DNA of 64,000 bases from Laetmonice hystrix (Eukaryota). Shown piece after piece: positions 4,861 through 64,000 of this stretch. The notes under the pieces are model-generated. The model made no database searches. It saw only the letters and a program-made list of their open reading frames with translations, and had not been told where the DNA came from. Made by a program: the position numbers and the translations under genes. Location: the NCBI GenBank assembly GCA_965235115.1, contig OZ249436.1, positions 23,686,001 through 23,750,000 of the forward strand, read 5' to 3'. The first letter of the stretch is position 1. Every line of letters begins with the position of its first letter.

Positions 4861-5837
4861 CGATTTTTCACGTTTCCTCATAATATGCCCCTTTAAAGTT
4901 GTCCCTACATACCCCGTCATTGCGGTCACCACAGCTCATAATTCACCCCCCCCCCACCCGGTAAAATGTCCTTCCGCCGCCTATGACAGTAAATAATACA
5001 GAATAGGGTCTGCATATAATGACTGTAAAGTGAGCCAGCTTCGGGGGTAGGTTAGAGGTGCTCAACCCTGACAACCAAGTCCCTTATTATTGAGTCATAT
5101 CACTTATTAAAACTTCTTATTATTTCTACACTGGGAGACAGTCCAATAATTTGGAAGGCACCAAGAGGCCCGTAGGCGGCGGGGGGGAGACTCGTTCCCA
5201 ATGCTCCCAGAATATGTCAAGGTTCAACTTTTCCAAAACTTTAGACTGGACTTCTGGTCCTGAAAATTATCTTGGACAAGATGCCAGACAATATTTATGG
5301 TTATTCATGCAGTTTTGGTTTTAAATCTCATATTATTGCTTTCCTTTAATCCTTTGTTGAAAAAGGTCCAGAATTTATAACTGTGCCCCACCCAACATTA
5401 TGGGCTGGCTACGGGCCTGAGCAAGTGCTGCAACAGCGCAGGCGCTGCGTGCATGGAGCACTCTAACCAAATAGCGTTCTTTCCTCTCACCCTCAGTGAC
5501 AGCAAGTGTGCTGCCTGCATCTGCCTACGTCATGTGCTCGGTGTGTTCACGTCTAACTCCTGTCACTTAGCCAAGACTCAAGACCCAAGAAACATACTGA
5601 AGTCAAATAAACATGTTTAGCATGATACTACCTTCACTTTCAAATCAAAGCACTGAATATTTCTGAATTTAGATCCCTTGTCGCCTTCAGTACCCCACAG
5701 TGCTGCCTTGCTTGCTTCCCTCCTCCGATGATACATTTCTTATCCAGTTGATCATATATTTTGATCTGTCTTTATCATCCCCAGGGAGGCATAATGAACT
5801 CCCAGCCCCATTAATAAATATTAAATGTATCTTTCAG

Positions 5838-6422: not shown

Positions 6423-7260
6423 ATAAGTAGTTCATGGTTTCCCCATAGACCTACTCATTTGTTATGCCGCTGTCACATCTTGCCGGATAGCATTAACGGA
6501 CGTGCGACGGACAGAAAATTTGTCAAAAATAATCATCCCATGGTGAAAGTCGTGTCCGTTGCAGCTCTAGGCCCTCAGGAATGGATTGTGGTGTCGATCA
6601 AATGCACAATGACCGCATAATTACTGGAAAAGTACAGGATAATTACCGGCCAATCTAACGGACACTACCGTACAAGTAATGGACAAGAACTGGACAAAAT
6701 GAAAGCAGAACGCTAGAGAAACTGACAAAACGTTCTTTGAACGTATTTGTTCAGGTCATGTTCTGGTCATGACCTGCCAAACCTAGGAGACGTGGAAATG
6801 ATAATTAAAAGTGACTCTTTTATGATCAGAGACAGTAATATTTGTAATTAGAGACAGTAGCCTACAATTCGTAACGCCCTTTTTTATATCACCTATAATC
6901 GTCTTAAGTGTATACTAAGTGCCAATTCATCCAGGTAGTACAGCAATAACCAAAGTGACTCCATCATATGACGTTACATTTTAGTACATTTTGTTTACAT
7001 GTGGAACATATTGAAATTATGTAGCGCTCGAGATCAGCACCTCTTGCACCTACGTAACCCTGCCTAACTGGTTGTGCCAGCAACCGGTGGCGCATGGCAT
7101 GCAACATAATATATGATAGGCCAACTGCAACTAGGCCGAGAGGAGAGGGGGATACAAGTCAGCTAACGGGGCAGAAAGGGGGCTGGATTGTGGATTTTTG
7201 AGTTGAAACTTTAAATAGTCTCAAAAAATTAAGCAGGTGCCTAATACTAAATAGTCGATT

Positions 7261-19213: not shown

Positions 19214-21211
19214 ACTAGTTGCGAGGTGCCTAGGGCACAGGTATCCCATTCACCAGTCAATGGTGTTAAAATCGGAAATTAGGTCAACTTGGCCGCCATC
19301 TTGGATTTTTCAAATTCAGTTCAAATGGGTCAAGTTTTCCATCCTAACCCCAATGGTGAAAACCAGACGTTGATATCTTTAACCGTTTTAGAGATATCAC
19401 TGATTTTTGGTTGAAAATGACCTAAAAGGGCCAACTTTGAAGAGCCATAACTTGGAAACTATTGATGTTAGGGGAGCCATCTCGGTGTCAGAGACAGCTG
19501 ACCTATTACCCTATCCAATGGTGTTAAAATCGGAAATTAGGTCAACTTGGCCGCCATCTTGGATTTTTCAAACTCAGTTCAAATGGGTCAAGTTTTCCAT
19601 TCTAACCCCAATGGTGAAAACCAGACGTTGATATCTTTAGCCGTTTTAGAGATAGCACTGATTTTTGGTTGAAAATGACCTAAAAGGGACAACTTTGAGG
19701 GGCCATAACATGGAAACTATTGATATTAGGGGACCCATCTCGGTGTCAGAGACAGCTGACCTATAACCCAATCCAATGGTGTTAAAATCGGAAATTAGGT
19801 CAACTTGGCCGCCATCTTGGATTTTTCAAATTCAGGTCAAATGGGTCAAGTTTTTCATCCTAAACCCAATGGTGAAAACCAGACATTAATATCTTTAACC
19901 GTTTTCGAGATATCACTCATTTTTAGTTGAAAATGACCTAAAAAGGGTCATGGAGCCAATGGGGTCACGTGACGGCATTTAAATAGATGGGAAATGAAAG
20001 ATCATATAAGATTTCCCATGAATTTAATTAGTAACCATGTACCCATCTGACTCTTTTTCCAAGTTACAGTCATCTGAAAGTACCGATGACGTCATAGGGT
20101 CACATAGGGTCACGTGACCTAAATAGAAATGGTGTCATTTTAAAGGCCATATATGACTTCCTATGGGTCTTCATTAGTACTTATGGGCCTATGTGGCTCT
20201 TTTTCCAAGTTACTGCCAGCTGAAAACACTGATGACGTCATACAGCCATATAGGGTCACGTGATCTAATTAAATAATGGTGTCATTTGAAAGGCCATATA
20301 TGACTTCCTATCTGTCTACAATAGTAACTATGGGCCTATCTGGCTCTGTTTCCAAGTTATTGCTAATTGAAAATACCGATGACATCATAGGGTCACGTAG
20401 GGTCACGTGACCTAAATAAAAATGGTGTCATTTGAAAGGCCATATATGACTTCCTATCTGTCTTCAATTAAATAGTAACTATGGGCCTATCTGGCTCTAT
20501 TGCCAAGTTACTGCTAGCTGAAAATACCGATGATGTCATAGGGTCACGTAGGGTCACGTGACCTAAATAAAAATGGTGTCATTTGAAAGGCCATATATGA
20601 GTTCCTATACATGTTCTATAGTAACTTTGCCTCTATCTTCCTTCGTTTCTGAGTTATAGCCCTATATTGCTTTCTTGGCAAGTTTTCTCAACTTTGAGGT
20701 CACGTGACTTGATTAATCTAGGTCACATCGCCACAACCTGAACGTACTTTTAATGAGCTGTCTCATGGGCTTCAGTGACATGACATTTGAGGATTTTCAC
20801 CATAATTTGAAGGGTGAGTTTCGATTTTAAGAGTTTCTGCTCCTTGACCTACTTTTCATATAGGTCAAAGGTCAGAGGTCAAACTGCCCTCCATAATTAT
20901 GCTAGCCACTTGTCCAATAATGATGATGGCTATAGTTTTACGAATGGTCTAATTTACCATGAAATACAGGCCTATATATCTGGAACCGTTTTTACGTCAT
21001 TACGTCATGACGTTACGTAATATGACGTCATGGGTCAGGTGGCCAACTCATCTTTTCATGGGCAATCTATGTGCCAAGTTTCATTGAGATATCTTGAAAA
21101 TTAATACCAATTAGGGTACAAAGTTTAACAACTACTACTACTACTACGGGAATACGGAAGATGAAACCATACAATTTCAAAATCCCATTCACCTAGAAGG
21201 TGAATGGGATA
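19214..21211 (-). mobile_element. Non-autonomous Helitron2/Helentron-like element (family E) with internal satellite arrays
   Basis: Starts ACTAG + hairpin + ATCCCATTCACC. Internal ~3x 258-bp and ~4-5x ~146-bp repeats, then (CTA)n. Ends in hairpin ATCCCATTCACC-TAGAA-GGTGAATGGGAT. Confidence 0.75.
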
Positions 21212-21619
21212 ACTAGACCTGTTGTGGCGATACCACAATGGATCCCATCCCCTGGGTGTCTTTTCTGACTAGACTAGACCAGACCAGACGTGAGACTAGT
21301 CTACAATAGTCAATAGGAAAGATTCAAGATGGCCACCGAAATTTGCAAATTTCTAATATCACCACCATTTCATAGCTTTCATCCTATACGGTCTCTGACG
21401 CCAAGATGGCTTGCCTATCCTTAATAGTTTTTATGCTATTGCTCCCAAAAGTTGACTTTTTTCATCCATTTTGAATGAAAATCCTCAAAATCTCGAATAT
21501 AGTTAAAGATATCAACGTCGCAGTAGGAAATGAGTTATCACATGACCCCTTTTTGTCGATTCTAAAAAAATTCAAGATGGCCACCAAAATTTGGAAATTT
21601 CTAATTTCACCAGCATTAA

Positions 21620-44914: not shown

Positions 44915-45265
44915 CACCACATCGTCAACCTAACGTAACCAACACAGCCAGCCTAACGTCACTACCAATAACATCACCAACATCGTCAGCCTAACGTCAC
45001 CACCACAGCTACTAAAGTCAACAACATCGTCAGCCTAACGTCACCACCACCGCCAGTCTAACGTCACCAACATCGTCAGCCTAACGTCACCAACCTGTCA
45101 GCATAACGTCACAACCATCGCCGCACCAACGTCACCACCATTGAGAGTCAGCCTAACATCACGGCCTAACATCACCACCATCGCCAGCCTAACGGCACCA
45201 TCATCTCCCGCCTAACGGCACCATCATCTCCTACGGCACCACATCTTCAGCCCAACGGCACTGGT
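44915..45265. repeat. Degenerate ~21-24-bp tandem repeat (CATCGTCAGCCTAACGTCACCA)
   Basis: Direct reading. Confidence 0.75.
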
Positions 45266-45954
45266 CACCCTCGTTAGACTAACGGAACCCCCCTCAACAT
45301 CACAGAATAATACCAAACGTCAAGATAACTACAATTCCCTATTTTCTGGGGATTCCATTATACCTATATAACTAAGATACCAATGACCAAATTTAAGGAT
45401 AAGTACCCAAAATCCCAACAACCATTACCTGAAACAATTAACTCAAGGACACAGATAATACAATATGAATACACAAAATGTAACAACCTTCACAATAATA
45501 ACAACCACAACAACTAGACATGCAGATTGCAGGCAATCAGGTATCCCGTTCCTCTATGGATGTATCTAGAAAGGTTCTGTATAGCATGAAAGCAAGTCGG
45601 TCATACCAATAATGAGCAAAGGGTTACAAGAGAAAGACTATGGAGAAGGTATATTCCAAATCTGGAGAAGATTCTCCAAAAAATGAGGGAGTAGATACAT
45701 TTTGACCAGTAATAAGTATAGGGTACCGACAGACCACTTAGACACCTGTGTACACAAAAATGTCTTCAAAATAAAAAATATAAAAATGAATACCAAAAAA
45801 AAAGAGTTGACATAGATGGGATTTGAAGGCAATTCCCTTGTCATGAAATTCACACACATCTGTTCACACACATATTTTGTAGAGTGTTTCTGTAAATTCA
45901 TGACCACAGTAATTAACAGCTAAGTAGAAAATATTTAAAAAAAATAAAAATTAT

Positions 45955-46025
45955 GCCATGGGTAGGATTCGAAACCACGACCCTTGGCAAGAAAGTCCTA
46001 CACTCTACCACTACACCATCCGTGC
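45955..46025 (-). pseudogene. tRNA-derived cassette 1 (present in every family-A unit)
   Basis: GCACGGATGGTGTAGTGGTAGAG...GGTCGTGG(T/G)TTCGAATCC with box A/box B and a downstream T-run; stems do not pair as a tRNA. Confidence 0.7.
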
Positions 46026-46206
46026 ACGCACACAATTAGTAGAGTCCTGCAATAAATGAATGACCATTGGCATAGAAGTAAACAACGATGAATTACATCA
46101 TACCAGGGAGACGCCATAGGAGGCTTATAAAGGTCCCCTATTGGAAAAGAGCTATTTATCAAGATTACCGGAGATAGAAAATATATAAATAAATGAAAAA
46201 ATCTTT

Positions 46207-46280
46207 TGTCAAAGGTGGGATTCGAACCCCCGACCTCTGGCATGAAGATCATACACTGTACCCACTGAGCCATCCAGGCA
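46207..46280 (-). pseudogene. tRNA-derived cassette 2 (present in every family-A unit)
   Basis: GCC(T/C)GGATGGCTCAGTGG...GGGTTCGAATCCC, tRNA-Lys-like 5' end, followed by a T-run. Confidence 0.7.
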
Positions 46281-47424
46281 CACACTCAATTTGTTGAGTG
46301 TTGCTGTAAATAAATCACCATAGTGGCAGATAACTGTGTGTTACATCATACAATCGTTACGTCATAGCAGGCTTATAAAGGACGCCTAGTGGAAGAGAAT
46401 TATGCCATTATCATTATATATCAACGAAATTCCACGAACTTCCACATTACATGCAAAATAGACAAATTTCAAAGTCACGTGACTGAGTCATATGACGTCA
46501 GATTTTTAAAATACTGCCTTTATTCGATCAGTCCCACTACTGAGAAGGCATATACAAAATCTGGAGAAGATTCTCCTAAAAATGAAGGAGGAGATACATT
46601 TTGACTGTTTTCTAAGTGGTGACCTGTATGTCAGAAAGGTCAAGGGTCAAAGGTCAAATGTATGTGGCAAAAGGTAAAGGTACTAGTCCTAAGTAACATG
46701 ACATGAATAACTTTTGTCTATCTCTGACTGGAAGTGTTCCACGTGATATCAAAATTGATAAATATATGACGTCATAACTTGACGTCATGACGTGACATGA
46801 CGTATTCCTTCATATGTCGAGGTCTCCATGTCATGATGTATCTAGCCTGAAAGTTTCATCCAGATATCTTGAAAACTGAGGGAGATATTGACCCGACCTT
46901 AACTACAACAATAACTAGACATGCAGATTGCAGGCAATCAGGTATCCCGTTCCTCTATGGATGTATCTAGAAAGGTTCTGTATAGCATGAAAGCAAGTCA
47001 GTCATACCAATAATGAGCAAAGGGTTACAAGAGAAAGACTATGGAGAAGGTATATTCCAAATCTGGAGAAGATTCTCCAAAAAATGAGGGAGTAGATACA
47101 TTTTGACCAGTAATAAGTATAGGGTACCGACAGACCACTTAGACACCTGTGTACACAAAAATGTCTTCAAAATAAAAAATATAAAAATGAATACCAAAAA
47201 AAAAGAGTTGACATAGATGGGATTTGAAGGCAATTCCCTTGTCATGAAATTCCCACACATCTGTTCACACACATATTTTGTAGAGTGTTTCTGTAAATTC
47301 ATGACCACAGTAATTAACAGCTAAGTAGAAAATATTTAAAAAAAATAAAAATTATGCCATGGGTAGGATTCGAAACCACGACCCTTGGCAAGAAAGTCCT
47401 ACACTCTACCACTACACCATCCGT

Positions 47425-48879
47425 CAGGGATGAAAGTTTTCAGGAAATTTCCTGAAATCAGGAAATTTGAAAAAATCCCCCCCCCCAAGAAATAACACTC
47501 AAAAAAGGAAATAGGCCTAGATCTATAGGCAAAAGAGGTAGGCCTAAGCCAAGGCTAAGTATTGCCCTGGACTGTGTGGTGGGCAATTTTATTTGTTAAT
47601 ATCAAATGAAACAATATCCCTTTCCAGGACGTTTTTTAACACCATGCAGCTCAATATATCTCTACCTGCCAAAGTTCGTTTATAGATGGGGATATTAGAG
47701 TGTCTCAAACCTGTCCAGTGTCACAGGTGCCGCCGTGCATAGGCCGGTCTGCCGGGGGTGCTGATGTACCGCCCGCGGTCCCTGTAGCTGTGGTCACATC
47801 GCTCACATAGACCGGCCCGCATGCGCTGACTTCTACCGGCACGCGGTGGCGTCTGTCCCGTCTGGCAGGCACGGCCCCGTGTCGCTGTGGTGAGAGCGAC
47901 TCCCCTCAGGTAATGACTTCAGGCAAAACTGATGGTCAGGCAGCTGCGAAGCCCGTTGATTCAGGCTTGCCATTATGCCATATCCATGCGCGAGTTTTGC
48001 CTGAGCGCTCACTTAGTGATAGCAATGAGACTATAGACAGACCGGTCTGTCTAGTCCCGGTGATAGTGATTAGGCTGACGAACTGCGCACCATCACAATG
48101 TCACTCCTCACAGGAAACTGGGTCAATTTAGTTCTATGAATCTGCCTAGTATATATGTCAGTAAGTTTTCATAATGTTTTCTTGCATATAAATTTGAGGA
48201 TAATGGCATTACGTAAGTGGTTTTCACTGAAGTTTTGGGGTTGTCAGGACTTTTCATTACATTTGTCGATCAGTGCAGGTGTCCTGATAAGACCGGAAGT
48301 GACAATATTTACAACCACATGAGTGGCACATGGACACACGGGCTGAACCACTCGACTCAGCGACTGTGTTGCTTGGCTGAGAGCCGCTGAGGGTCGTGAC
48401 TGCTGAGGGTCAAGACTGATGGACAGCCTGTGTGGTCAGTCTAACACATGGAAGCTGTTTGACAACGTAATCGGGTGCATTTTGGACGCTAAAAGCCGAC
48501 TGGATTCCAATGTTGGAGAGAGACGGCAGAGCCAGGCAGAGCCAGAGGTTGACACGACAGGCAAGCAACAGCCTTGAACAGGGGCATGGACTGATGAGTG
48601 ATGGAGTCTATCTAGCAAATTTGCAGGGGTGGGGGGTTGGGGGGGGTGGCGACTAAATACTGAGGGCTAGGCCCTATAATATATAATAGCTAGGAGGCCT
48701 TATCGGATTATGATTGTCTGCTGTTCCTAGCCTGACTTTTTTTAAGGGGGGGGGGTAAGCCTTGGATGTGCGCATGAACAAATATTAATTATGGACATTG
48801 GCCCCCGCCGCTCCCCCCCCCCCCCCCCCCCCCCGGTCAGAATTTCAGGAAATTTTACAGCTGGCCACTTTCATCCCTG
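47425..48879. mobile_element. hAT-like non-autonomous element with 6-bp TSD
   Basis: ATCCGT|CAGGGATGAAAGT...ACTTTCATCCCTG|ATCCGT; empty site present in the six sister units. Confidence 0.9.
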
Positions 48880-51800
48880 ATCCGTGCACGCACACAATTA
48901 GTAGAGTCCTGCAATAAATGAATGACCATTGGCATAGAAGTAAACAACGATGAATTACATCATACCAGGGAGACGCCATAGGAGGCTTATAAAGGTCCCC
49001 TATTGGAAAAGAGCTATTTATCAAGATTACCGGAGATAGAAAATATATAAATAAATGAAAAAATCTTTTGTCAAAGGTGGGATTCGAACCCCCGACCTCT
49101 GGCATGAAGATCATACACTGTACCCACTGAGCCATCCAGGCACACACTCAATTTGTTGAGTGTTGCTGTAAATAAATCACCATAGTGGCAGATAACTGTG
49201 TGTTACGTCATACCATCGTTACGTCATAGCAGGCTTATAAAGGACGCCTAGTGGAAGAGAATTATGCCATTATCATTATATATCAACGAAATTCCACGAA
49301 CTTCCACATTACATGCAAAATAGACAAATTTCAAAGTCACGTGACTGAGTCATATGACGTCAGATTTTAAAAATACTGCCTTTATTCGATCAGTCCCACT
49401 ACTGAGAAGGCATATACAAAATCTGGAGAAGATTCTCCAAAAAATGAAGGAGGAGATACATTTTGACTGTTTTCTAAGTGGTGACCTGTATGTCAGAAAG
49501 GTCAAGGGTCAAAGGTCAAATGTATGTGGCAAAAGGTAAAGGTACTAGTCCTAAGTAACATGACATGAATAACTTTTGTCTATCTCTGACTGGAAGTGTT
49601 CCACGTGATATCAAAATTGATAAATATATGACGTCATAACTTGACGTCATGACGTGACATGACGTATTCCTTCATATGTCGAGGTCTCCATGTCATGATG
49701 TATCTAGCCTGAAAGTTTCATCCAGATATCTTGAAAACTGAGGGAGATATTGACCCGACCTTAACTACAACAATAATAATAACTAGACATGCAGATTGCA
49801 GGCAATCAGGTATCCCGTTCCTCTATGGATGTTTTTAGAAAGGTTCTGTATAGCATGAAAGCAAGTGAGTCATACCAATAATGAGCATAGGGTTACAAGA
49901 GAAAGACTGTGGGGAAGGTATATTCCAAATCTGGAGAAGATTCTCCAAAAAATGAGGGAGTAGATGCATTTTGACCAGTAATGAGCATAGGGTACCGACA
50001 GACCACTTAGACACCTGTGTACACAAAAATTTCTTTAAAATAAAAAATATAAAAATGAATACCCAAAAAAGGTTTGACATAGGTGGGATTTGAAGGCAAT
50101 ACCCTTGTCATAAAATTCCCACACATCTGTTCACACACATATTTTGTGTTTCTGTAAATTCATGACCAAAGTAATTAGGAACTAAGTAGAATTTTTTTTT
50201 TTAAATCATGCCATGGGTAGGATTCGAACCCACGACCCTTAGCATGAAAGTCCTACTCTCTACCACTGCACCATCCGTGCACGCACAGAATTTGTAGAGT
50301 CCTGCAATAAATGAATGACCATTGGCATAGAAGTAAAGAACGATGAATTACATCATACCGGGGAGACGCCATACCAGGCTTATAAAGGTCCCCTATTGTA
50401 CGAGAGCTATTTACCAAGATTACCGGAGGTAGAACATATATAAATAAATGAAAAAAATCTTTTGTCACAGGTGGGATTCGAACCCGAGACCTCTGGCATG
50501 AAGATCATACACTCTATCACTGAGCCATCCGGGCGCACACTCAATTTGTTGAGTGTTGCTGTAAATGAATCACCATAGTGGTAGATAACTGTGTGTTACG
50601 TCATACCATCGTTACGTCATAGCAAGCTTATAAAGGATGCCTAGTGGAAGAGAATTATGCCATTATCATTAGATATCCACGAAATTCCACGAAATTCCTC
50701 ATTACATGCAAAATTGACAAAATTCAAAGTCACGTGACTCAGCGATATGACGTCATATTTAAAAAAAATGCCATTAATCAATCCGCCCCACTATGACGAA
50801 GCTATAAATTAAATTTGGAGAAGATTCTGCAAAAAATGAAGGAGTAGATAGATTTTGACTGTTTTCTATGGCTTGACTTGTATGTCAGAAAGGTCAAATG
50901 TATGTGGTAAATGATAAAGGTACAAGTCCTAAGTGAGATGACATGAATAAGTTTTGTCTATCTCTGACTGGAAGTGTACCACGTGATCTCAAAGTTGCCG
51001 AATATAATACGTCATAACATGACGTCATGACGTCATATGACATATTCCATCATATGTTGAGGTCTCCATGTCATGATGTATCTAGCCTGAAAGTTTCATC
51101 CAGATATCTTGAAAACTGAGGGAGATATTCACCAGACCTTAACTACAACTACTACTACTACTACGACAACTAGACATGCAGATTGCAGGCAATCAGGTAT
51201 CCCGTTCCTCTATGGTTGTATCTAGAAAGGTTCTGTATAGCATGAAAGCAAGTCAATCATACCAATAATGAGCATAGGGTTACAAGAGAAAGACTGTGGG
51301 GAAGGTATATGCCAAATCTGGAGAAGATTCTCCAAAAAATGAGGGAGCAGATACATTTTGACCAGTACTGAGCATAGGGTACCGACAGACCACTTAGACA
51401 CCTGTGTACACAAAAATTTCTTCCAAATAAAAAATATAAAAATGAATACCAAAAAAAAGGGTTGACATAGGTGGGATTTTTAGGCAATACCCTTGTCATA
51501 AAATTCCCATACATCTGTTCACACACATATTTTGTAGAGTGTTTCTGTAAATTCATGACCACAGTAATTAAGAACTAAGTAAAAAATATTCAAAAAAAAT
51601 AAAAATCATGCCATGGGTAGGATTCGAATCCACGACCCTTGGCAAGGAAGTCCTACACTCTACCACAGCACCATCCGTAAACGCACACAATTAGTAGAGT
51701 CCTGCAATAAATGAATGACCATTGCCATTGGCATAGAAGTAAACAACGATGAATTACATCATACCGGGGAGAAGCCATACCAGGCTAAAAAAGGTCCCCT

Positions 51801-54800
51801 ATTGTAAGAGAGCTATTTACCAAGATTACCGGAGGTAGAACATATATAAAAAAATGAAAAAATCTTTTGTCACAGGTGGGATTCGAACCCGAGACCTCTG
51901 GCATGAAGATCATAGACTCTACCACTAAGCCATCCGGGCACACACTCAATTTGTTGAGTGTTGCTGTAAATGAATCACCATAGTGGTAGAGAACTGTGTG
52001 TTACGTCATACCATCGTTACGTCATAGCAGGCTTATAAAGGACGCCTAGTGGAAGAGAATTATGCCATTATCATTAGATATCAACGAAATTCCACGAACT
52101 TCCTCATTACATGCAAAATAGACAAAATTCAAAGTCACGTGACTCAGCGATATGACGTAATATTTTTAAAAAAACTGCCATCAATCGATCCGCCCCACTA
52201 TGATGAAGCTATAAATCAAATTTGGAGAAGATTCTGTAAAAAATGAAGGAGTAGATAGATTTTGACTGTTTTCTATGGCTTGACCTGTATGTCAGAAAGG
52301 TCAAAGGTCAAAGGTCAAATGTATGTGGTAAATGATAAAGGTACAAGTCCTAAGTGAGATGACATGAATAACTTTTGTCTATCTCTGACTGGAAGTGTAC
52401 CACGTGATCTCAAAGTTGCCAAACATAATACGTCATAACATGACGTCATGACGTCATATGACATATTCCATCATATGTTGAGGTCTCCATGTCATGATGT
52501 ATCTAGCCTGAAAGTTTCATCCAGATATCTTGAAAACTGAGGGAGATATTGACCCGACCTTAACTACAACAATAATAATAATAACTAGACATGCAGATTG
52601 CAGGCAATCAGGTATCCCGTTCCTCTATGGATGTTTTTAGAAAGGTTCTGTATAGCATGAAAGCAAGTGAGTCATACCAATAATGAGCATAGGGTTACAA
52701 GAGAAAGACTGTGGGGAAGGTATATTCCAAATCTGGAGAAGATTCTCCAAAAAATGAGGGAGTAGATGCATTTTGACCAGTAATGAGCATAGGGTACCGA
52801 CAGACCACTTAGACACCTGTGTACACAAAAATTTCTTTAAAATAAAAAATATAAAAATGAATACCCAAAAAAGGTTTGACATAGGTGGGATTTGAAGGCA
52901 ATACCCTTGTCATAAAATTCCCACACATCTGTTCACACACATATTTTGTGTTTCTGTAAATTCATGACCAAAGTAATTAGGAACTAAGTAGAATTTTTTT
53001 TTTTAAATCATGCCATGGGTAGGATTCGAACCCACGACCCTTAGCATGAAAGTCCTACTCTCTACCACTGCACCATCCGTGCACGCACAGAATTTGTAGA
53101 GTCCTGCAATAAATGAATGACCATTGGCATAGAAGTAAAGAACGATGAATTACATCATACCGGGGAGACGCCATACCAGGCTTATAAAGGTCCCCTATTG
53201 TACGAGAGCTATTTACCAAGATTACCGGAGGTAGAACATATATAAATAAATGAAAAAAATCTTTTGTCACAGGTGGGATTCGAACCCGAGACCTCTGGCA
53301 TGAAGATCATACACTCTATCACTGAGCCATCCGGGCGCACACTCAATTTGTTGAGTGTTGCTGTAAATGAATCACCATAGTGGTAGATAACTGTGTGTTA
53401 CGTCATACCATCGTTACGTCATAGCAAGCTTATAAAGGATGCCTAGTGGAAGAGAATTATGCCATTATCATTAGATATCCACGAAATTCCACGAAATTCC
53501 TCATTACATGCAAAATTGACAAAATTCAAAGTCACGTGACTCAGCGATATGACGTCATATTTAAAAAAAATGCCATTAATCGATCCGCCCCACTATGACG
53601 AAGCTATAAATTAAATTTGGAGAAGATTCTGCAAAAAATGAAGGAGTAGATAGATTTTGACTGTTTTCTATGGCTTGACTTGTATGTCAGAAAGGTCAAA
53701 GGTCAAAGGTCAAATGTATGTGGTAAATGATAAAGGTACAAGTCCTAAGTGAGATGACATGAATAAGTTTTGTCTATCTCTGACTGGAAGTGTACCACGT
53801 GATCTCAAAGTTGCCGAATATAATACGTCATAACATGACGTCATGACGTCATATGACATATTCCATCATATGTTGAGGTCTCCATGTCATGATGTATCTA
53901 GCCTGAAAGTTTCATCCAGATATCTTGAAAACTGAGGGAGATATTCACCAGACCTTAACTACAACTACTACTACGACAATAATAATAGTGTACACCCAAA
54001 CCGTACAATTTCAGAATCCCGTTCCTCAGTCGGAGGAACGGGATAATAATAGTGTACACCCAAACCGTACAATTTCAGGATCCCGTTCCTCAGTCGGAGG
54101 AACGGGATAACTAGACATGCAGATTGCAGGCAATCAGGTATCCCGTTCCTCTATGGATGTATCTAGAAAGGTTCTGTATAGCATGAAAGCAAGTCAATCA
54201 TACCAATAATGAGCATAGGGTTACAAGAGAAAGACTGTGGGGAAGGTATATGCCAAATCTGGAGAAGATTCTCCAAAAAATGAGGGAGCAGATACATTTT
54301 GACCAGTACTGAGCATAGGGTACCGACAGACCACTTAGACACCTGTGTACACAAAAATTTCTTCCAAATAAAAAATATAAAAATGAATACCAAAAAAAAA
54401 TGGTTGACATAGGTGGGATTTTTAGGCAATACCCTTGTCATAAAATTCCCACACATCTGTTCACACACATATTTTGTAGAGTGTTTCTGTAAATTCATGA
54501 CCACAGTAATTAAGAAGTAAGTAGAAAATATTTAAAAAAAATAAAAATCATGCCATGGATAGGATTCGAATCCACGACCCTTGGCAAGAAAGTCCTACAC
54601 TCTACCACAGCACCATCCGTACACGCAGACAATTAGTAGAGTCCTGCAATAAATGAATGACCATTGCCATTGGCATAGAAGTAAACAACGATGAATTACA
54701 TCATACCGGGGAGACGCCATACCAGGCTTATAAAGGTCCCCTATTGTAAGAGAGCTATTTACCAAGATTACCGGAGCTAGAACATATATAAATAAATGAA

Positions 54801-56997
54801 AAAAAATTTTGTCACAGGTGGGATTCGAACCCGAGACCTCTGGCATGAAGATCATAGACTCTACCACTAAGCCATCCGGGCACACACTCAATTTGTTGAG
54901 TGTTGCTGTAAATGAATCACCATAGTGGTAGAGAACTGTGTGTTACGTCATACCATCGTTACGTCATAGCAGGCTTATAAAGGACGCCTAGTGGAAGAGA
55001 ATTATGCCATTATCATTAGATATCCACGAAATTCCACGAACTTCCTCATTACATGCAAAATAGACAAAATTCAAAGTCACGTGACTCAGCGATATGACGT
55101 CATATTTTTAAAAAAAACTGCCATCAATCGATCCGCCCCACTATGACGAAGCTATAAATCAAATTTGGAGAAGATTCTGTAAAAAATGAAGCAGTAGATA
55201 GATTTTGACTGTTTTCTATGTCTTGACCTGTATGTCAGAAAGGTCAAAGGTCAAAGGTCAAATGTATGTGGTAAATTATAAAGGTACAAGTCCTAAGTGA
55301 GATGACATGAATAACTTTTGTCTATCTCTGACTGGAAGTGTACCACGTGATCTCAAAGTTGCCGAACATAATACGTCATAACATGACGTCATGACGTCAT
55401 ATGACATATTCCATCACATGTTGAGGTCTCCATGTCATGATGTATCTAGCCTGAAAGTTTCATCCAGATATCTTGAAAACTGAGGGAGATATTGACCCGA
55501 CCTTAACTACAACAATAATAATAATAATAACTAGACATGCAGATTGCAGGCAATCAGGTATCCCGTTCCTCTATGGATGTTTTTAGAAAGGTTCTGTATA
55601 GCATGAAAGCAAGTGAGTCATACCAATAATGAGCATAGGGTTACAAGAGAAAGACTGTGGGGAAGGTATATTCCAAATCTGGAGAAGATTCTCCAAAAAA
55701 TGAGGGAGTAGATGCATTTTGACCAGTAATGAGCATAGGGTACCGACAGACCACTTAGACACCTGTGTACACAAAAATTTCTTTAAAATAAAAAATATAA
55801 AAATGAATACCCAAAAAAGGTTTGACATAGGTGGGATTTGAAGGCAATACCCTTGTCATAAAATTCCCACACATCTGTTCACACACATATTTTGTGTTTC
55901 TGTAAATTCATGACCAAAGTAATTAGGAACTAAGTAGAATTTTTTTTTTTAAATCATGCCATGGGTAGGATTCGAACCCACGACCCTTAGCATGAAAGTC
56001 CTACTCTCTACCACTGCACCATCCGTGCACGCACAGAATTTGTAGAGTCCTGCAATAAATGAATGACCATTGGCATAGAAGTAAAGAACGATGAATTACA
56101 TCATACCGGGGAGACGCCATACCAGGCTTATAAAGGTCCCCTATTGTACGAGAGCTATTTACCAAGATTACCGGAAGTAGAACATATATAAATAAATGAA
56201 AAAAATCTTTTGTCACAGGTGGGATTCGAACCCGAGACCTCTGGCATGAAGATCATACACTCTATCACTGAGCCATCCGGGCGCACACTCAATTTGTTGA
56301 GTGTTGCTGTAAATGAATCACCATAGTGGTAGATAACTGTGTGTTACGTCATACCATCGTTACGTCATAGCAAGCTTATAAAGGATGCCTAGTGGAAGAG
56401 AATTATGCCATTATCATTAGATATCCACGAAATTCCACGAAATTCCTCATTACATGCAAAATTGACAAAATTCAAAGTCACGTGACTCAGCGATATGACG
56501 TCATATTTAAAAAAAATGCCATTAATCGATCCGCCCCACTATGACGAAGCTATAAATTAAATTTGGAGAAGATTCTGCAAAAAATGAAGGAGTAGATAGA
56601 TTTTGACTGTTTTCTATGGCTTGACTTGTATGTCAGAAAGGTCAAAGGTCAAAGGTCAAATGTATGTGGTAAATGATAAAGGTACAAGTCCTAAGTGAGA
56701 TGACATGAATAAGTTTTGTCTATCTCTGACTGGAAGTGTACCACGTGATCTCAAAGTTGCCGAATATAATACGTCATAACATGACGTCATGACGTCATAT
56801 GACATATTCCATCATATGTTGAGGTCTCCATGTCATGATGTATCTAGCCTGAAAGTTTCATCCAGATATCTTGAAAACTGAGGGAGATATTCACCAGACC
56901 TTAACTACAACTACTACTACTACTACGACAATAATAATAGTGTACACCCAAACCGTACAATTTCAGAATCCCGTTCCTCAGTCGGAGGAACGGGATA

Positions 56998-59900
56998 ACT
57001 AGTTGCGAGGAGTTGCAGGGCAACACCATGTATCCCGTTTCCTTTTTATAACATGGAAGCAGCAGAAGACGTGAAAAAAGTATTTTAAACAACATTGTAA
57101 ACATTGTTCTACACTGTAAACATTCAGCTCCTAGCTACAGCCACCTGTAAATACTGATGACGTCATACAAGGGTCACGTGACATAAATAAAAATGGCGTC
57201 AACAAAAAGGCCATATATGACTTCCTATATCAGTTCAATGGTAACTCTGGGCCTATGTGGCTCTGTTTGCAAGTTACAGCCAATTGAACATACTGATGAC
57301 GTCATACAGCCATATATGGTCATATGACATCATTAAAAATGGTGCCATTTGAAAGGACATATATCACTTCCTATATAAGTTCAATGGTAACTATGGGCCT
57401 ATCTAGCTCTGTTTTTAAGTTACAGACAATTGAATATACTGGTGACGTCATACAGCTATATTGGGTCACGTGACATCATTAAAAATCGTGTCACTGGAAA
57501 GGCCATATATGACTTCCTATTTGTGTTCAATGGTAACTATGGGTCTATCTAGCTCTGTTTCCAAGTTATAGCCAACTAAAAATATTGATGACGTCATACA
57601 GCCATATAGAGTCACGTGACATCAATAAAAATTGTGTCACTGTAAAGGCCATATATGACTTCCTATTTGTGTTCAATGGTAGGTATGGCCCTATGTGGCT
57701 CTGTTTCCGAATTATAGCCATCTGAAAATACTGATGACGTAATACAGCCATATAGAGTCACGTGACATCAATAAAAATAGTGTCACTGGAAAGGCCATAT
57801 ATGACTTCCTATTTGTGTTCAATGGTAGGTATGGCCCTATGTGGCTCTGTTTCCAAGTTATAGCCATCTGAAAATACTGATGACGTAATACAGCCATATA
57901 GGGTCACGTGACCTCATTAAAAATGGTCTCACTGGAAAGGCCATATATGACTTCCTATTTGTGTTCAATGGTAACCATGGGCCTATGTGGCTCTGTTTCC
58001 AAGTTATAGCCATCTGAATATACTGATGACGTCATACAGCCATATAGGGTCACGTGACATCATTAAAAATGGCGCCATTCGAAAGAGCATATATGACTTC
58101 CTATATGAGTTCAAGAGGAACCATGGGCCTATCTCTCATCCTTTAAAAGTTACAGGCCCTTTTATACAAACGGTTCAAGTTACAAACTTTAAGGTCACGT
58201 GACTCACTCAATATAGGTCAAAGCAAGTTCTAACGTAGTAGACTTTTTTCGGCTCTCCATTGTGTGTTATCATCTGCAGTTTAGTTGAAATTCATAAAGA
58301 ATTGTGGCCTGTGAAAGGTTTTAAGCGGTTTTTCACATGTGACCTGTAACTCACAAAGGTCAAAGGTCAATGGTCAAATGAATATGGCAAATTGTTAAGA
58401 ACTAAAAGCCTAGTTGCTGCATGGCAATAGTTTCACTCTGGACCCCCCAGGGACTGAGAACTGCATGACCCCTCTGACCACTTTGTGACCTAATAGCACC
58501 GTGACCTTAGGTCACGTGACCTTATTTTTCAAAATTTTGCGCCTAGGGGCCATGATGAACATGTGTGCAAAATTTTAGAAAGATCGCTCTAATAGCTTCT
58601 GAGATATTCACCCTAGGTCACTACAACAATAATGATAAAAAATAATAATAATAATAACTAGTTGCGAGGAGTTGCAGGGCAACACCATGTATCCCGTTTC
58701 CTTTTTATAACATGGAAGCAGCACAAGACGTGAAAAAAGGTATTTTAAACAACACTGTAAACATTGATCTACACTGTAAACATTCAGCTCCTAGCTACAG
58801 CCACCTATAAATACTGATGACGTCATACAAGGGTCACGTGACATAAATAAAAATGGGGTCAACAAAAAGGCCATATATGACTTCCTATATCAGTTCAATG
58901 GTAACCCTGGGCCTATGTAGCTCTGTTTGCAAGTTACAGCCAATTGAACATACTGATGACGTCATACAGCCATATATGGTCATATGACATCATTAAAAAT
59001 GGTGCCATTTGAAAGGACATATATCACTTCCTATACAAGTTCAATGGTAACTATGGGCCTATCTAGCTCTGTTTCCAAGTTATAGCCAACTAAAAATATT
59101 GATGACGTCATACAGCCATATAGAGTCACGTGACATCAATAAAAATAGTGTCACTGGAAAGGTCATATATGACTTCCTATTTGTGTTCAATGGTAAGTAT
59201 GGGCCTATGTGGCTCTGTTTCCAAGTTACAGCCATCTGAAAATAATGATGACGTCATACAGCCATATGGGGTCACGTGACATCATTAAAAATGGTGTCAC
59301 TGCTAAGGCCATATATGACTTCCTAGTTGTGTTCAATGGTAAATATGGGTCTATGTGGCTCTGTTTCCAAGTTATAGCAGTCTGAAAATACTGATGACGT
59401 CATACAGCCATATAAGGTCACGTGACCTCATTAAAAATGGTGTCACTGGAAAGCCCATATATGACTTCCTATTTGTGTTCAATGGTAACCATGGGCGTAT
59501 CTAGCTCGGTTTCCAAGTTATATCCATCTGAATATACTGATGACGTCATACTGCCATATCGGGTCACGTGACCTCATTAAAAATGGTGTGACTGGAAAGG
59601 CCATATATGACTTCCTATATGAGTTCAATAGTATCTATGCGCCTATGTGGCTCTGTTTCCAAGTTATAGCCATCTGAAAATACTGATGACGTCATACAGC
59701 CATACGGGGTCACGTGACATCATTAAAAATGGTGCCATTTGAAAGGGTGTATATGACTTCCTATATGAGTTCAAGAGGAACCATGGGCCTATCTCTCATC
59801 CTTTTCAAGTTACAGGCCCTTTTATACAAACGGTTCAAGTTACAAACTTTAAGGTCACGTGACTCACTCAATATAGGTCAAAGCAAGTTCTAACATAATA

Positions 59901-60426
59901 GACTTTTTTCGGCTCTCTATTGTGTGTTATAATCTGCAGTTTAGTTGAAATTCATAAAGAATTGTGGCCTGGGAAAAGTTTTAAGCGGTTTTTCACATGT
60001 GACCTGTAACTGATTAAGGTCAAAGGTCAAAGGTCAAATGAATATGGCAAATTGTTACGACCGAAAAGTCTAGTTGCTGCATGGCAATAGTTTCACTCTG
60101 GATCCCCCAGGGACTGAGAACTGCATGACCCCTCTGACCACTTTGTGACCTAATAGCACCGTGACCTTAGGTCACGTGACCTTAATTTTCGAAATTTGGC
60201 GCCTAGGGGCCATGCTGAACATGTGTGCAAAATTTTAGAAAGATAGCTCTAATAGCTTCTGAGATATTCACCTTAGGCCACTACTACAATAATAATAATA
60301 ATAGGGATGACGAATTCATACAATAACAAAATCCCGTTTCCGCTGGAAGCGGAAACGGGATAATAATAGGGATGACGAATTCGTACAATAACAAAATCCC
60401 GTTTCCGCTGGAAGCGGAAACGGGAT
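56998..60426 (-). mobile_element. Two nested ~1.65-kb Helentron-like elements (family B) with 146-bp internal satellite
   Basis: ACTAGTTGCGAGGAGTTGCAGGGCAAC...ATCCCGTTTCC at 56998 and 58657. Two terminal modules ATCCCGTTTCCGCTGGAAGCGGAAACGGGAT at 60303-60361 and 60368-60426. Confidence 0.85.
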
Positions 60427-60561
60427 AATAATAGTGTACACCCAAACCGTACAATTTCAGGATCCCGTTCCTCAGTCGGAGGAACGGGATAATAATAGTG
60501 TACACCCAAACCGTACAATTTTAGAATCCCGTTCCTCAGTCAGAGGAACGGGATAATAATA

Positions 60562-61714
60562 ACTAGCTCGGAGGTATTGCAGGGGCAATACCGAATCCCA
60601 TTCCCCATTGACGTATGTGAGGAATATGAGTAACTTTACAGTAGCAACTGTGACTCTAGTGCAAAGGCATTTATTGTATATCATAACTCTGTGTCAATTG
60701 AAAGAACATATGACTACCTATCAGTGTTTAATAGTAACTTTGGCAGTACCTTCAACCATTAAAATGTAATGTACCAGAGAAACTATAGATGACATTGCTA
60801 TCACGTCATAGGGCATGTGACCTAAAAAATAATGGTGCCAAATGAAGGAGTATTGGTGTTTCATAGTAGGCCTAACCAGGGCTCTAACTTTAACCATTTA
60901 CAAGTTATAGCCCTTAATATCGATGACGTCCTTGTGACGTCATAGGTCACGTGACCTAAAAATGATGAGGCCAAAGAAAATAGCATATATGACTTCCTAT
61001 TCGTGTTCAATATTAACCATAAGCCTATCTAGCACCGTTTAAAAGTATTATATGTAATCTTTGCAATGTTCAGAACTTCAAGGTCACGTGATTACGCGAA
61101 AATAGGTCAGATCACTATTTCAATGAATAACTTTTTGAAGCCCCCCCATGGAGAGTTCGTGTAGTCTATCTGGTTTCGATTTTATTGGGGGAAGAAGCGA
61201 TTTGCTAAAATTTGACTTATGAAAAATGACAAATGACAGAATTTCCAAAGTTTAAGGTCACGTATCTAGGTCAAAATATGGCGCAGCCCTTAGCCATGAA
61301 GTTCCCAGTTAGATACCCCTATGGAGATGTCCTGTAGTCAAGTTGGCTTCGATTTGACAAAAAATGTGGGACAAGAAACCATTTGGTCACTTTTTGACTT
61401 ATGACCTAGATCTCAGAGGTCCCAGGTCATAGGTCAAAGCGAGAGAAAATAAATATTACCCTTTAAATGCCAGGGGCCCTAATATAAATGAATTCTGCCT
61501 ATCTCTGTGTAGCTCTTTACAATGAGGTACTTTAGAAAACCTTAAAAACGTCTTTATAACGTCATAAAATGACGTCATTACGTCACATGACGTCATGAGT
61601 CATAGCACCATATCTCCTTCCTATTGTCCATGCCCCCACCAAGTTTCATTCAGATCCCTTGAAAACTGAGCGAGATATCGCCCCTGTCTAACTACATGGA
61701 ATATAATAATAATA
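60562..61714 (-). mobile_element. Helentron-like element body (family C); terminal module not in window
   Basis: ACTAG + GTATTGC/GCAATAC hairpin + ATCCCATTCCCC; ends in (AAT)n. Confidence 0.7.
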
Positions 61715-62450
61715 ACTAGAGACGAGTTGTTGCAGCGCAACAACGGATCCCATTCCCCATCTTTGGGGCCAGAAGAAATCCCCTTAGGAACACTGCAGTG
61801 GGGGCAAAACAAACAGAGGGACTCGAACGAAACACAGTTGATTATGGTGGTTGACAGAATCGATAAGAGCCATGGCTAGCTGAGATCTAGACTTTTTTCC
61901 AGCCATTTTGAATGAAAATCCTCAAAATCTCGACTATGGTTAAAGATATCAACTTCGCGTTTTAACCATTGGATTCAGCAGGAAAAATTACGTGGAAATG
62001 AGGTATCACATGACCTTTTTCGTTGATTCTAAAAAAAATTTCAAGATGGTCGCCAAAATTTGCGAATTTCTAATTTCACCACCATTTGATAGCATACTAC
62101 CCATCCTGTCTCTGACTCCAAGATGGTTTGCCTATCCATAATAGTTTTTGTGCTATGGCTCATGAAAGTTGTTTTTTTTCACCCATTTTGATTGAAAATC
62201 CTCAAAATCTCGAATATGGTTGAAGATATCAACGTCGCGTTTTCACCATTGGATTCAGCAGAAAAAATTACGTGGAAATGAGGTATCACATGACTTTTTT
62301 TCGTTGATTCTAAAAAATTCAAGATGGCCGCCAAAATTTGCGAATTTCTAATTTGACCACCATTTGATAGCATACTTCCCATACGGTCTCTGACGCCAAG
62401 AGGGTTTGCCTATCCATAATAGTTTTTGTGCTATGGCTCCCAAAATTTGG
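61715..62450 (-). mobile_element. Helentron-like element (family D) with 278-bp repeats; far end not seen
   Basis: ACTAG + GTTGTTGC/GCAACAAC hairpin + ATCCCATTCCCC; monomers homologous to 21300-23640. Confidence 0.7.
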
Positions 62451-63579
62451 TTTTATTTATCAAAAATTTATCAATTTAACATTTATTTAATAGAAAAAAA
62501 ACAGCCACCACATGTCGTGACCGTTCCAACACCTGTTTAACTTTCAGAGATTACATATGAACAAGTCGAAAAGGCATTGCTTTTGACAGTAGTTGAAACA
62601 GACTGTGCCTATACCCTCCATACATGTAGTCAATATAAACCTGGGGACCAGGCTACGTTACCTTTGACCTTTTTAGGTCGCCAGCAAAAGTGGGGGGAGG
62701 GGGGATGGCATGTCCCCCGTCCCCCCGGCAGTTGTGCCCCTGTCCTGGCACTCGGCTCACCCACGATTGACTCCGTCATATCTCGGCTGTACGACGAAGG
62801 TTCCCATGCTGGGGGGTGGGGTGGGTGGGTGGCTAGGTCGGGACCGCTGACCCGGATGTAAACAACAAACTCGCGCGCTGCCGCCGTGCCGAAAATGTAG
62901 AACTCCCTAGTGTCGGACTTTATACAAAGTCAGAATATCTGGGTTTCCTCCCAGGTGAAGAAGAGACTGTTTTGTCTCCACGATAGAAAATTCGAAGTAC
63001 AGGTATGCTGAGAAATTATATTTGAACTAGGCCTATGTGCCTGTGCGTAGGGGTCGACTATTTACTCTTTGTGTTCATGTGCGACCGCTTTACACTACTT
63101 TGCACGAAAAACGGGAAAATGGCCGCTTCATACATCCGAGGCCTGCTTCGCCTCCGGATATGACCTAGAAACAGCCAATCAGAAGCAGCGTCGGTGTTCC
63201 GAGTGCCTGTCCTGGTTACAGCCTACTGTAAAAAAAAACAAAAAAAAAAAACCTTCAGCCACAGTGCTTCAGGTGTATGTGGCCACCGTCGTGATATATA
63301 GTATTGGTAACAAGCCAATTGTCCGCTTGCAGATCCATCTGTGTTTGTTGTCAGGGCAACAGGCAATTTCTAACTCTACTCTCTAGCTATTTACTAAGCC
63401 AAAACGCAATTATAGCTCTTTAAACTTTACACACAAGGAGCTATACATGCTTTATATACATATATATAACATACATAGGCTTTCAAAACAAAAGATTAAA
63501 TATTTTTGAAGTTACCCCTGCTACCTACCAAGCCAGGCATTGGTACGAATTCAATGCAAATAAACCATGTAAAATATCA

Positions 63580-63660
63580 TAGCACGATGGCAGCGCCAGT
63601 GCTTCGTACCTGTGACAGGTCCCGGGTTCAAATCCTGGCGAAGTCACTATAATTTTTTTT
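63580..63660 (+). pseudogene. tRNA-derived sequence within a repeat
   Basis: TAGCACGATGG (box A-like), GGTTCAAATCC (box B), T-run. Confidence 0.45.
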
Positions 63661-64000
63661 CCGGTTTTGATTTTTTTCGGCCACTAAATTAGAAAAATAT
63701 TATGTTTCTTGCCTTGACAATTGCCAGTATTTCAGCTATACATGTTTTACAGCTGTATTTCACGTTCCATACCGAAAATATACAGTAGTCTACTTTTAAA
63801 TATTAAATATGCGTCACTGTCTGCAGTGTGGACTTCTCTATGGCGAACGCCATTGGATTTTTGAACTGAGATTTGTCATTGCTTCCGAGTTCATCTCGCC
63901 TCTATTACAAGACGACTATCTCTTCAAAATAGTCTTGCATTGAGCTAAATATGTCTCTGAAGTACTCCTCCCGTTTCAGACAGAAATAATCGATACTTCT

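Follow-up and report, generated by a model that had tools for sequence, protein, structure and literature searches.

Helentron-derived repeats are among the most abundant DNA of flies, bivalves and other invertebrates and seed satellite DNAs; the constant microsatellite beside their 5' end and the turning of dispersed copies into arrays are without an accepted mechanism. In the passages of PMC4067079 drawn on here, the non-autonomous elements termed HINEs are described with palindromic subterminal inverted repeats (subTIRs) 2-4 nt from the 5' end; distances from the 3' terminus are given as 38-60 nt for the 3' subTIR and 8-35 nt for a small palindrome. Insertion is reported in TT, with Ts at both boundaries and without target duplication. 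The same source discusses clustering, adjacency and terminator bypass, and the left flank of oyster Cg_HINE is reported in the corresponding part of PMC7492417 as a hairpin-forming subTIR followed by a microsatellite. Here, an array of ~26 kb was analyzed in Laetmonice hystrix (assembly GCA_965235115.1, a genome of 627 Mb in 35 contigs). The window is a stretch of 64,000 nt, C1:23686001-23750000 (contig OZ249436.1), to which 10 kb were added on each side; motif scans and the downstream sequence placed the array from window position 45514 to ~71186 (position 7186 of the downstream locus L011). The region is probably a nest of non-autonomous Helentrons that grew mainly as one small site of resident elements received insertion after insertion. 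Nested insertion into a target tract that the elements carry themselves, across families, is well supported, and the anatomy and polarity of the elements, the position of each internal insertion, the order in which ends pair and the recurrence in the genome were established.

Motif scans resolved the array into bodies, each beginning with a short head, and hairpin modules (Table 1). They reproduced exactly the order given in an earlier note on this window, U1 to U5, E E, U6 U7, E, (B B e e), E E, C D, and family B indeed has two bodies and two modules. Seven heads of family A (CTAGACATGCAGATTGCAGGCAATCAGGTATCCCGTTCCTC) were found with five A modules, in which the hairpin ATCCCGTTCCTC-AGTCG-GAGGAACGGGAT lies at 54016, 54080, 56968, 60462 and 60526, together with single heads of C and D. 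The modules recur with a period of 64 nt and measure ~59-61 nt without the AAT spacer, not 57 as previously given, and their hairpins fold far better than shuffled sequence (z values in Table 1). A 12-nt inverted repeat is common to head and module and is family-specific (ATCCCGTTCCTC in A, ATCCCGTTTCC in B, ATCCCATTCCCC in C/D); this holds in A, B, C/D, F and G. The A bodies fall into three variants, c (U1/U2, 98.6% identity), a (U3/U5/U7, 99.4-99.9%) and b (U4/U6, 98.2%), and the five window A modules read AGAATCCC or AGGATCCC in the order AGA, AGG, AGA, AGG, AGA; the module readings were as the earlier note had stated. Tandem Repeats Finder (period <=500) reported only the 64-nt module runs and the 146-bp repeats inside B. 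The array does not consist of one monomer repeated head-to-tail at a constant period, as a satellite would, since bodies of 1.4 kb are broken by module stacks and by other families. The DNA left of U1 resembles no Helentron body.

Table 1. Parts of the Helentron nest within the window (strand is that of the element).
Feature	Window position	Strand	Remarks
U1, A body variant c + short tract	45514..46914	-	head motif; outermost left element; element-strand 3' end at 45514
U2, A body variant c	46915..49782	-	inserted after ACAACAATAA of U1; holds foreign 1455-bp element 47425-48879
U3, A body variant a	49783..51169	-	head motif; pairs with module E5
U4, A body variant b	51170..52584	-	inserted after ACGACAA of U3; pairs with E2 (AGG)
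U5, A body variant a + (ACT)n(AAT)n tract	52585..53985	-	pairs with E1 (AGA)
E1, A module AGA	53986..54046	-	5' palindromic subTIR hairpin 54016-54044 + 30-nt leader; fold z -5.0
E2, A module AGG	54050..54110	-	motif scan
U6, A body variant b	54111..55530	-	begins immediately after E2
U7, A body variant a + tract	55531..56937	-	head motif, body comparison
E3, A module AGA	56938..56998	-	motif scan
B1, family B body	56999..58657	-	146-bp tandem repeat, 6.6 copies, 57170-58132
B2, family B body	58658..60300	-	146-bp repeat, 6.6 copies, 58830-59792; inserted in AAT tract of B1
e1 + e2, B modules	60301..60428	-	hairpins 60331-60361, 60396-60426; fold z -7.8
E4 (AGG) + E5 (AGA, two base variants), A modules	60432..60556	-	close U6 and U3
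C body, subTIR ATCCCATTCCCC	60563..61715	-	own module elsewhere of gamma type, 6/6 closed copies
D body, second ATCCCATTCCCC family	61716..64000	-	inserted in tract of C; continues to L011 ~945, closed by delta module

The elements are non-autonomous Helentrons of the pearl/Cg_HINE type, in which the 5' end, a palindromic subTIR, corresponds to the hairpin module, and the 3' end, with subTIR, short palindrome and CTAG-TT, to the body start. This polarity was assigned because an A-like head, as its reverse complement, comes after an intact Helentron open reading frame on the strand of that frame. The frame, of 1638 aa (L027:4916-9829, at C2:38.48 Mb), contains Helitron_like_N, PIF1 and Exo_endo_phos domains, and the reverse-complemented head lies ~600 nt past it, abutting the modules of the next element. 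The last 126 nt of this Helentron are 83% identical to the A 3' end, a comparison that covers the 3' end alone. The HINE layouts given in the consulted passages of PMC4067079 and PMC7492417 fit only with minus as the element strand, which again makes the module the 5' end; the earlier note had taken the hairpin module as the terminal part, and its polarity is reversed accordingly by the intact frame. At a second Rep locus, 3.8 kb separate the frame from the reverse complement of a G-type head downstream of it, and at the third Rep locus no ends were seen. Genome-wide, Helitron_like_N has at least 125 matches, many of them in open frames of 2800-3600 aa. The survey beyond the window covered ~220 kb of genome sequence and coordinate lists.

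On the element strand the 5' end reads TT-ATCCCGTTCCTC-CGACT-GAGGAACGGGAT, and the inverted 12-mer is repeated near the other end, GAGGAACGGGAT-ACCTGA-TTGCCTGCAA-TCTGCATGTCTAG-TT, where the subTIR starts ~41-43 nt from the terminus. A palindrome TTGC/GCAA is located ~13-15 nt from the 3' terminus, as in HINEs, whose subTIRs measure 12-15 nt and whose 3' palindrome spans 5-10 nt; the fold energy of this small palindrome was no better than that of shuffles (z 0.1, -1.1). The (AAT)n(ACT)n tract is present in every family, and central repeats occur in B (146 bp x 6.6) and F (~150 bp x ~12). Canonical Helitron1 elements have 5' TC and 3' CTRR termini, carry a hairpin of 16-20 nt ~11 nt before the 3' end, and insert between A and T. 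The elements do not have the termini of canonical Helitron1: a 3' CTAG is present, but the 5' end is a palindromic subTIR instead of TC, terminal inverted repeats are present, and the element-strand flanks are TT/TT.

Downstream of the window, D is followed by six ATCCCATTCCCC modules (delta, gamma, gamma, gamma, gamma, delta) and then by heads of three further families, F, G and H, the last beginning with CGAG, not CTAG. Beyond these heads lie a G module, an F module, a degenerate gamma-like module N3 and A modules AGG, AGG and AGA, and right of the last A module the DNA is unlike any Helentron part. The full nest therefore totals 14 heads and 19 modules of at least six families. The earlier note had predicted closing modules for D and C and then two A modules; the families and their order came out as predicted, whereas six ATCCCATTCCCC modules were found against two, and three A modules against two.

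The order of the ends was evaluated with a bracket parser that demands an exact 10-mer subTIR match and the small palindrome; a looser version allowing one mismatch merged A with C/D and accepted two false heads, and its counts were discarded. The automatic token list holds 32 of 33 ends because the degenerate N3 fails the palindrome test. All 13 of the 13 possible same-family pairs can be drawn without crossing, while shuffled orders averaged 7.7 pairs and none of 3000 reached 13.

At L011 3779-3905 (window 67779-67905) the H head follows the G head after 84 nt, giving two stacked 3' ends with hardly any body separating them; only G is closed downstream, H-type heads recur elsewhere (L042), and the double head may represent a composite family that gained a second 3' end. 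The D and H bodies (window 63500-64000 and L011 5400-5900) share a long stretch including a tRNA-like piece and a T-rich segment, so the two families either are related or have the same captured or inserted sequence in common. At L011 7156-7184 (window 71156-71184), the 5-nt loop of the outermost A module reads CGACT, a flip of AGTCG, with the leader in the usual orientation. Flipped-loop A modules number two in the genome, and a general hairpin flip-flop mechanism was dropped given this rarity.

Sequence variants of the A ends followed a last-in-first-out order. The five concordant pairings of bodies and modules within the window, which the earlier note had emphasized, fit this order and are, on their own, weaker evidence than they seem because only two variant states are involved. 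Among 16 single A copies, a b or c body end is accompanied by AGG in 9/9 and an a body end by AGA in 5/7 (Fisher p 0.0048), which bears out the linkage anticipated for solo copies. Downstream, U2 and U1 fit the first two A modules (both AGG) together with the five window pairs, and the last A module, AGA with the flipped loop, is left over. At locus L002 a b copy holds an a copy and the modules read AGA then AGG; at L051 an a copy holds a b copy that holds another b copy, and the modules read AGG, AGG, AGA; both loci fit last-in-first-out pairing. The C module is gamma in every closed copy elsewhere (Table 1), and the nest after the opening of C and then D shows delta followed by gamma, as this order predicts. 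Joined with the single-copy linkage and the two further loci, the five variant pairings are convincing.

Locus L051 (C2:4245001-4250400, reverse strand) also showed an A module with its following flank twice, at 263-911 and 5086-5400. The first flank copy is ~580 nt long and the second runs ~240 nt to the locus end, and they bracket the 5'-truncated a-type body with its two b-type guests. This duplication is a local rearrangement on top of the nest.

The internal insertions are confined to one small site. Each of the 13 internal heads sits either within the (AAT)n/(ACT)n tract of a host or immediately at a module GGGATAA, and no Helentron end was found within ~25 kb of nest bodies. The statement that every new body starts in the tract applies to 7 of the 10 internal heads in the window; U6 and B1 come directly after a module GGGATAA and C after a module plus AATAATAA. 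Cross-family guests make up 5/13 internal insertions (B in A, C after A, D in C, F, and G in F) and cannot be made by within-family recombination. A typical A unit has five AATAA sites in the body and two in the tract, and under equal site use 13/13 tract insertions would have p = (2/7)^13 = 8e-8, or 4e-5 with only eight independent events, so that the tract is favoured beyond the short motif AA-T(A/T)A (the hyphen marks the junction).

The outer flanks (n=20) indicated the general target. The right ends were all (G)GGAT-AA, with T next after GGGATAA in 15/20 (p 1.5e-5), and 14/15 left flanks ended in AA. On the element strand this corresponds to TT on both sides, with no longer target duplication seen; the exact cut is not placeable because the flanking letters are shared. 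The general plus-strand target is therefore approximately AA-T(A/T)A, a motif that the (AAT)n tract (element-strand (TTA)n) repeats in tandem. Of 16 single A copies on C1 and C2, ten are in non-Helentron DNA, five in or against Helentron tracts, modules or heads, and one in an AAT-rich repeat. The proposal that the elements are self-targeting thus stands insofar as each carries a preferred tract, but the targeting is not self-specific, given the cross-family insertions and the copies in unique DNA at AA-T(A/T)A.

The same arrangement recurred across the genome. At <=1 mismatch, 453 A heads and 390 A modules were counted. Among 215 exact A module ends, 25 have a further module exactly one spacer length (AATAATAG) away and 25 have CTAG next, at least two of the latter being plain flank. 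Identical a-type body ends on C1-C4 were closed by their own module within ~90 nt in 16/30 cases and not in 14/30, and a guest head sits in the tract of 6/12 C copies. Balanced doubles were found in different unique flanks at L047-L049, and a 30-kb stretch of C2 parses as a three-family nest. Shuffle tests on the truncated loci L050-L053 and the C2 30-kb region were not significant and are uninformative.

This recurrence bears on whether the stacking was produced by misassembly of a highly repeated family, which we consider very improbable. Such an error could be fostered by U3, U5 and U7 differing by just 2-8 bases, and the sequencing runs that hold the stretch (four runs, one sample, one study) are short contigs that break at repeats, none spanning 1 kb. 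The same grammar is, however, present at more than 10 loci with different unique flanks and family mixes, the junctions are phase-exact, always AA-CTAG and GGGATAA-T, and a genome in 35 contigs suggests long-read assembly.

Besides these short contigs, several observations weigh against a nest built by insertion, and some of them point to duplication. If nests that had already formed were transposed whole, fewer than 13 of the insertions were independent. The a-b-a-b-a order of U3-U7 could partly be a tandem duplication of a nested b(a) unit, as U4-U5-E1-E2 and U6-U7-E3-E4 resemble two copies of it, and U3, which has to be the oldest a copy, shows fewer private differences than either of the other two. 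At L052 four A copies form a head-to-tail array whose adjacent units are most alike (99.4-99.5%), which is the pattern of unequal crossover. M2-M5 are four near-identical tandem modules, and the AAT tracts on both sides of every body could pair. An array made mainly by unequal crossover or tandem segmental duplication between AAT tracts and bodies, after one or two initial insertions and with gene conversion homogenizing the copies, would account for these features and is nevertheless unlikely here. Crossover cannot generate the nested order in which B, C, D, F and G stand within or behind A and yields no module stacks apart from body stacks. Divergence is also unequal between the putative copies, 25/1415 for U4/U6 vs 8/1406 for U5/U7 (p 0.004), which speaks against plain duplication, although gene conversion could mimic this difference. 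Doubles and triples of the same grammar occur in different unique flanks. The earlier claim that arrays grow by cross-family nested insertion is accordingly upheld by the nest order and the cross-family guests, with the amendment that unequal crossover also builds arrays, as at L052.

The remaining observations against insertion concern unequal numbers of ends. In the nest, six modules are partnerless, namely four ATCCCATTCCCC modules (M3-M6), the degenerate N3 and one A module (N6), and head H is never closed. Elsewhere, L050 has eight heads and seven modules between unique flanks, L005 one head and three modules between unique flanks, and L046 two heads and one module; the expected balance of brackets therefore failed both here and at these loci. 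Aberrant rolling-circle replication at the donor, through a missed terminator or re-initiation on a circle lacking an end, could produce multi-end concatemers that integrate as blocks. In plants, tandem Helitron arrays that combine many 5' ends with a single 3' end are reported (Xiong et al. 2016, as summarised in the parts of PMC12628747 and PMC8268682 used here), terminator bypass has been invoked for Helitron arrays in PMC4067079, and L005, with its single body and three 5' modules, has this appearance. As the origin of the whole array this route is improbable: a concatemer from a single template cannot mix six families with different terminal repeats, its order would be head-to-tail and not stacked 5' ends followed by mirror-order bodies, and the variant tags pair last-in-first-out. 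Rolling-circle errors may explain surplus ends once a nest exists.

For a nest grown mainly by insertion, the following course is proposed. On its own (minus) strand each element reads as a 5' palindromic subTIR, a (TTA)n(GTA/GTC)n microsatellite, a body with or without 146-bp repeats, a 3' subTIR, a short palindrome and CTAG-TT. Mobilization in trans presumably relies on the Rep-helicase-endonuclease proteins encoded by the autonomous Helentrons of this genome, and integration would take place between two Ts in an A/T-rich context. The (TTA)n tract is a tandem run of this target directly adjoining the 5' hairpin, so that residents would capture copies of their own and of sister families. Repetition of this step would yield stacked 5' modules on one side and stacked bodies with their 3' ends on the other, in last-in-first-out order. 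Surplus ends could arise by transposition that pairs the 5' end of an outer element with the 3' end of an inner one, or an inner 5' with an outer 3' end, or else by recombination between the AAT tracts flanking every body, which would delete or duplicate units.

A reason for the preference for the tract beyond its short motif could be that the microsatellite is an evolved landing pad. The Helentron machinery might be guided to resident tracts by the 5' hairpin, or by single-stranded DNA that hairpin and repeat expose; we consider this reading less likely than not. If true, new copies would enter old copies and not genes, and nests would grow recursively. Any outer 5' end could then work with any inner 3' end, giving composite elements and satellite-like arrays, and a function would be provided for a feature that the bivalve and Drosophila papers describe and leave unexplained. 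If the tract is the preferred target, both the retention of the microsatellite and the formation of arrays follow from one rule. Its predictions are stacks in mirror order, nests that mix families, alleles with an empty tract and composite elements with multiple ends. Annotation is affected as well, since repeat finders will call such nests satellites or many false 'families'; a bracket parser of termini would resolve them.

Several further features were observed in and around the nest. The U2 body is interrupted by the 1455-bp foreign element listed in Table 1, which is bounded by terminal inverted repeats of 13 bp (CAGGGATGAAAGT) and by a target duplication of 6 bp, ATCCGT; its empty site is present in U1, and it sits in the tRNA-like part of the A body. 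Transposons targeting small-RNA genes make target duplications of this size. Each A body has two tRNA-like stretches on the minus (element) strand, in U1 at window ~45960-46030 and 46205-46275 and at equivalent places in U2-U7. They were read as decayed or SINE-like because ARAGORN called no tRNA in the window and Rfam gave no match above threshold. A SNORA5 match below the gathering score (28.3 vs 30 bits) at window 60384-60507, on the B/A module run, was attributed to a chance resemblance of the stacked hairpins. A minisatellite with a period of 23 bp (also 38, 44 and 68 bp) adjoins the nest on its upstream side, at window 44931-45261, and no link between it and the Helentrons was seen. At window 21080-21260 the body end and module of another Helentron family (hairpin 21182-21210) abut an F-like head at 21213, a second end-to-end junction within the same window.

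Compared with known systems, the elements belong to a family already described. The HINEs, including mite HINE-Mo, oyster Cg_HINE, bivalve pearl and DTC84, share with them, according to the cited passages of PMC4067079, PMC7492417 and PMC3879986, a palindromic 5' subTIR near the end followed by a microsatellite, optional central tandem repeats of ~140-170 bp, a 3' subTIR followed by a short palindrome, and insertion in TT or T-rich DNA without target duplication, written as 'AA' at both ends on the other strand. The terminal sequences differ from the published C. gigas boxes: ATCCCGTT and AACGGGAT had 0 hits in the supplement of PMC8268682, and the present families are accordingly distinct from the boxes named in C. 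gigas. The HINE passages of these papers do not describe the microsatellite as a landing site for further copies or mirror-order stacked ends. Our literature search found no description of a HINE microsatellite as a landing site or of cross-family mirror-order end stacks, with Satovic-Vuksic and Plohl 2021 outside its coverage; 'complex loci' of Helitron parts in C. gigas are attributed to that paper in the passage available and may overlap the present finding. The landing-pad grammar did not appear in the literature searched; the element family is known.

Drosophila DINE-1 belongs to the same superfamily and shares subTIRs, a microsatellite, a 3' stem-loop, TT preference and clustering (PMC4067079, PMC9075770, in the parts that treat it). 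Its 5' subTIR, in contrast to the one found here, is not itself palindromic (PMC4067079), and the passages on it in both papers describe clustering, not ordered nesting in the microsatellite. Arrays from rolling-circle errors (Xiong, Dooner and Du 2016; terminator bypass in bat and silkworm), as far as the excerpts used describe them, likewise have unequal numbers of 5' and 3' ends, and such errors may be the source of the surplus modules and heads. In those arrays a single truncated element is repeated head-to-tail, whereas six families are interleaved and nested here. Integration into simple repeats, as here, is also reported for MuTAnT Mutator-like elements, which enter TA repeats and belong to a different superfamily, and for lepidopteran Helitron-like elements in (GAAA)n (Coates et al. 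2010), where the repeat is different. In the TE dimers of McGurk and Barbash (as summarised in the relevant part of PMC12628747), site preference and not recombination makes adjacent copies that can seed satellites, as in the present array. Those dimers formed at shared external targets in Drosophila, whereas here the target lies inside the element, hence the recursive nests, and the nest on C1 illustrates one route by which such elements build satellite-like arrays.

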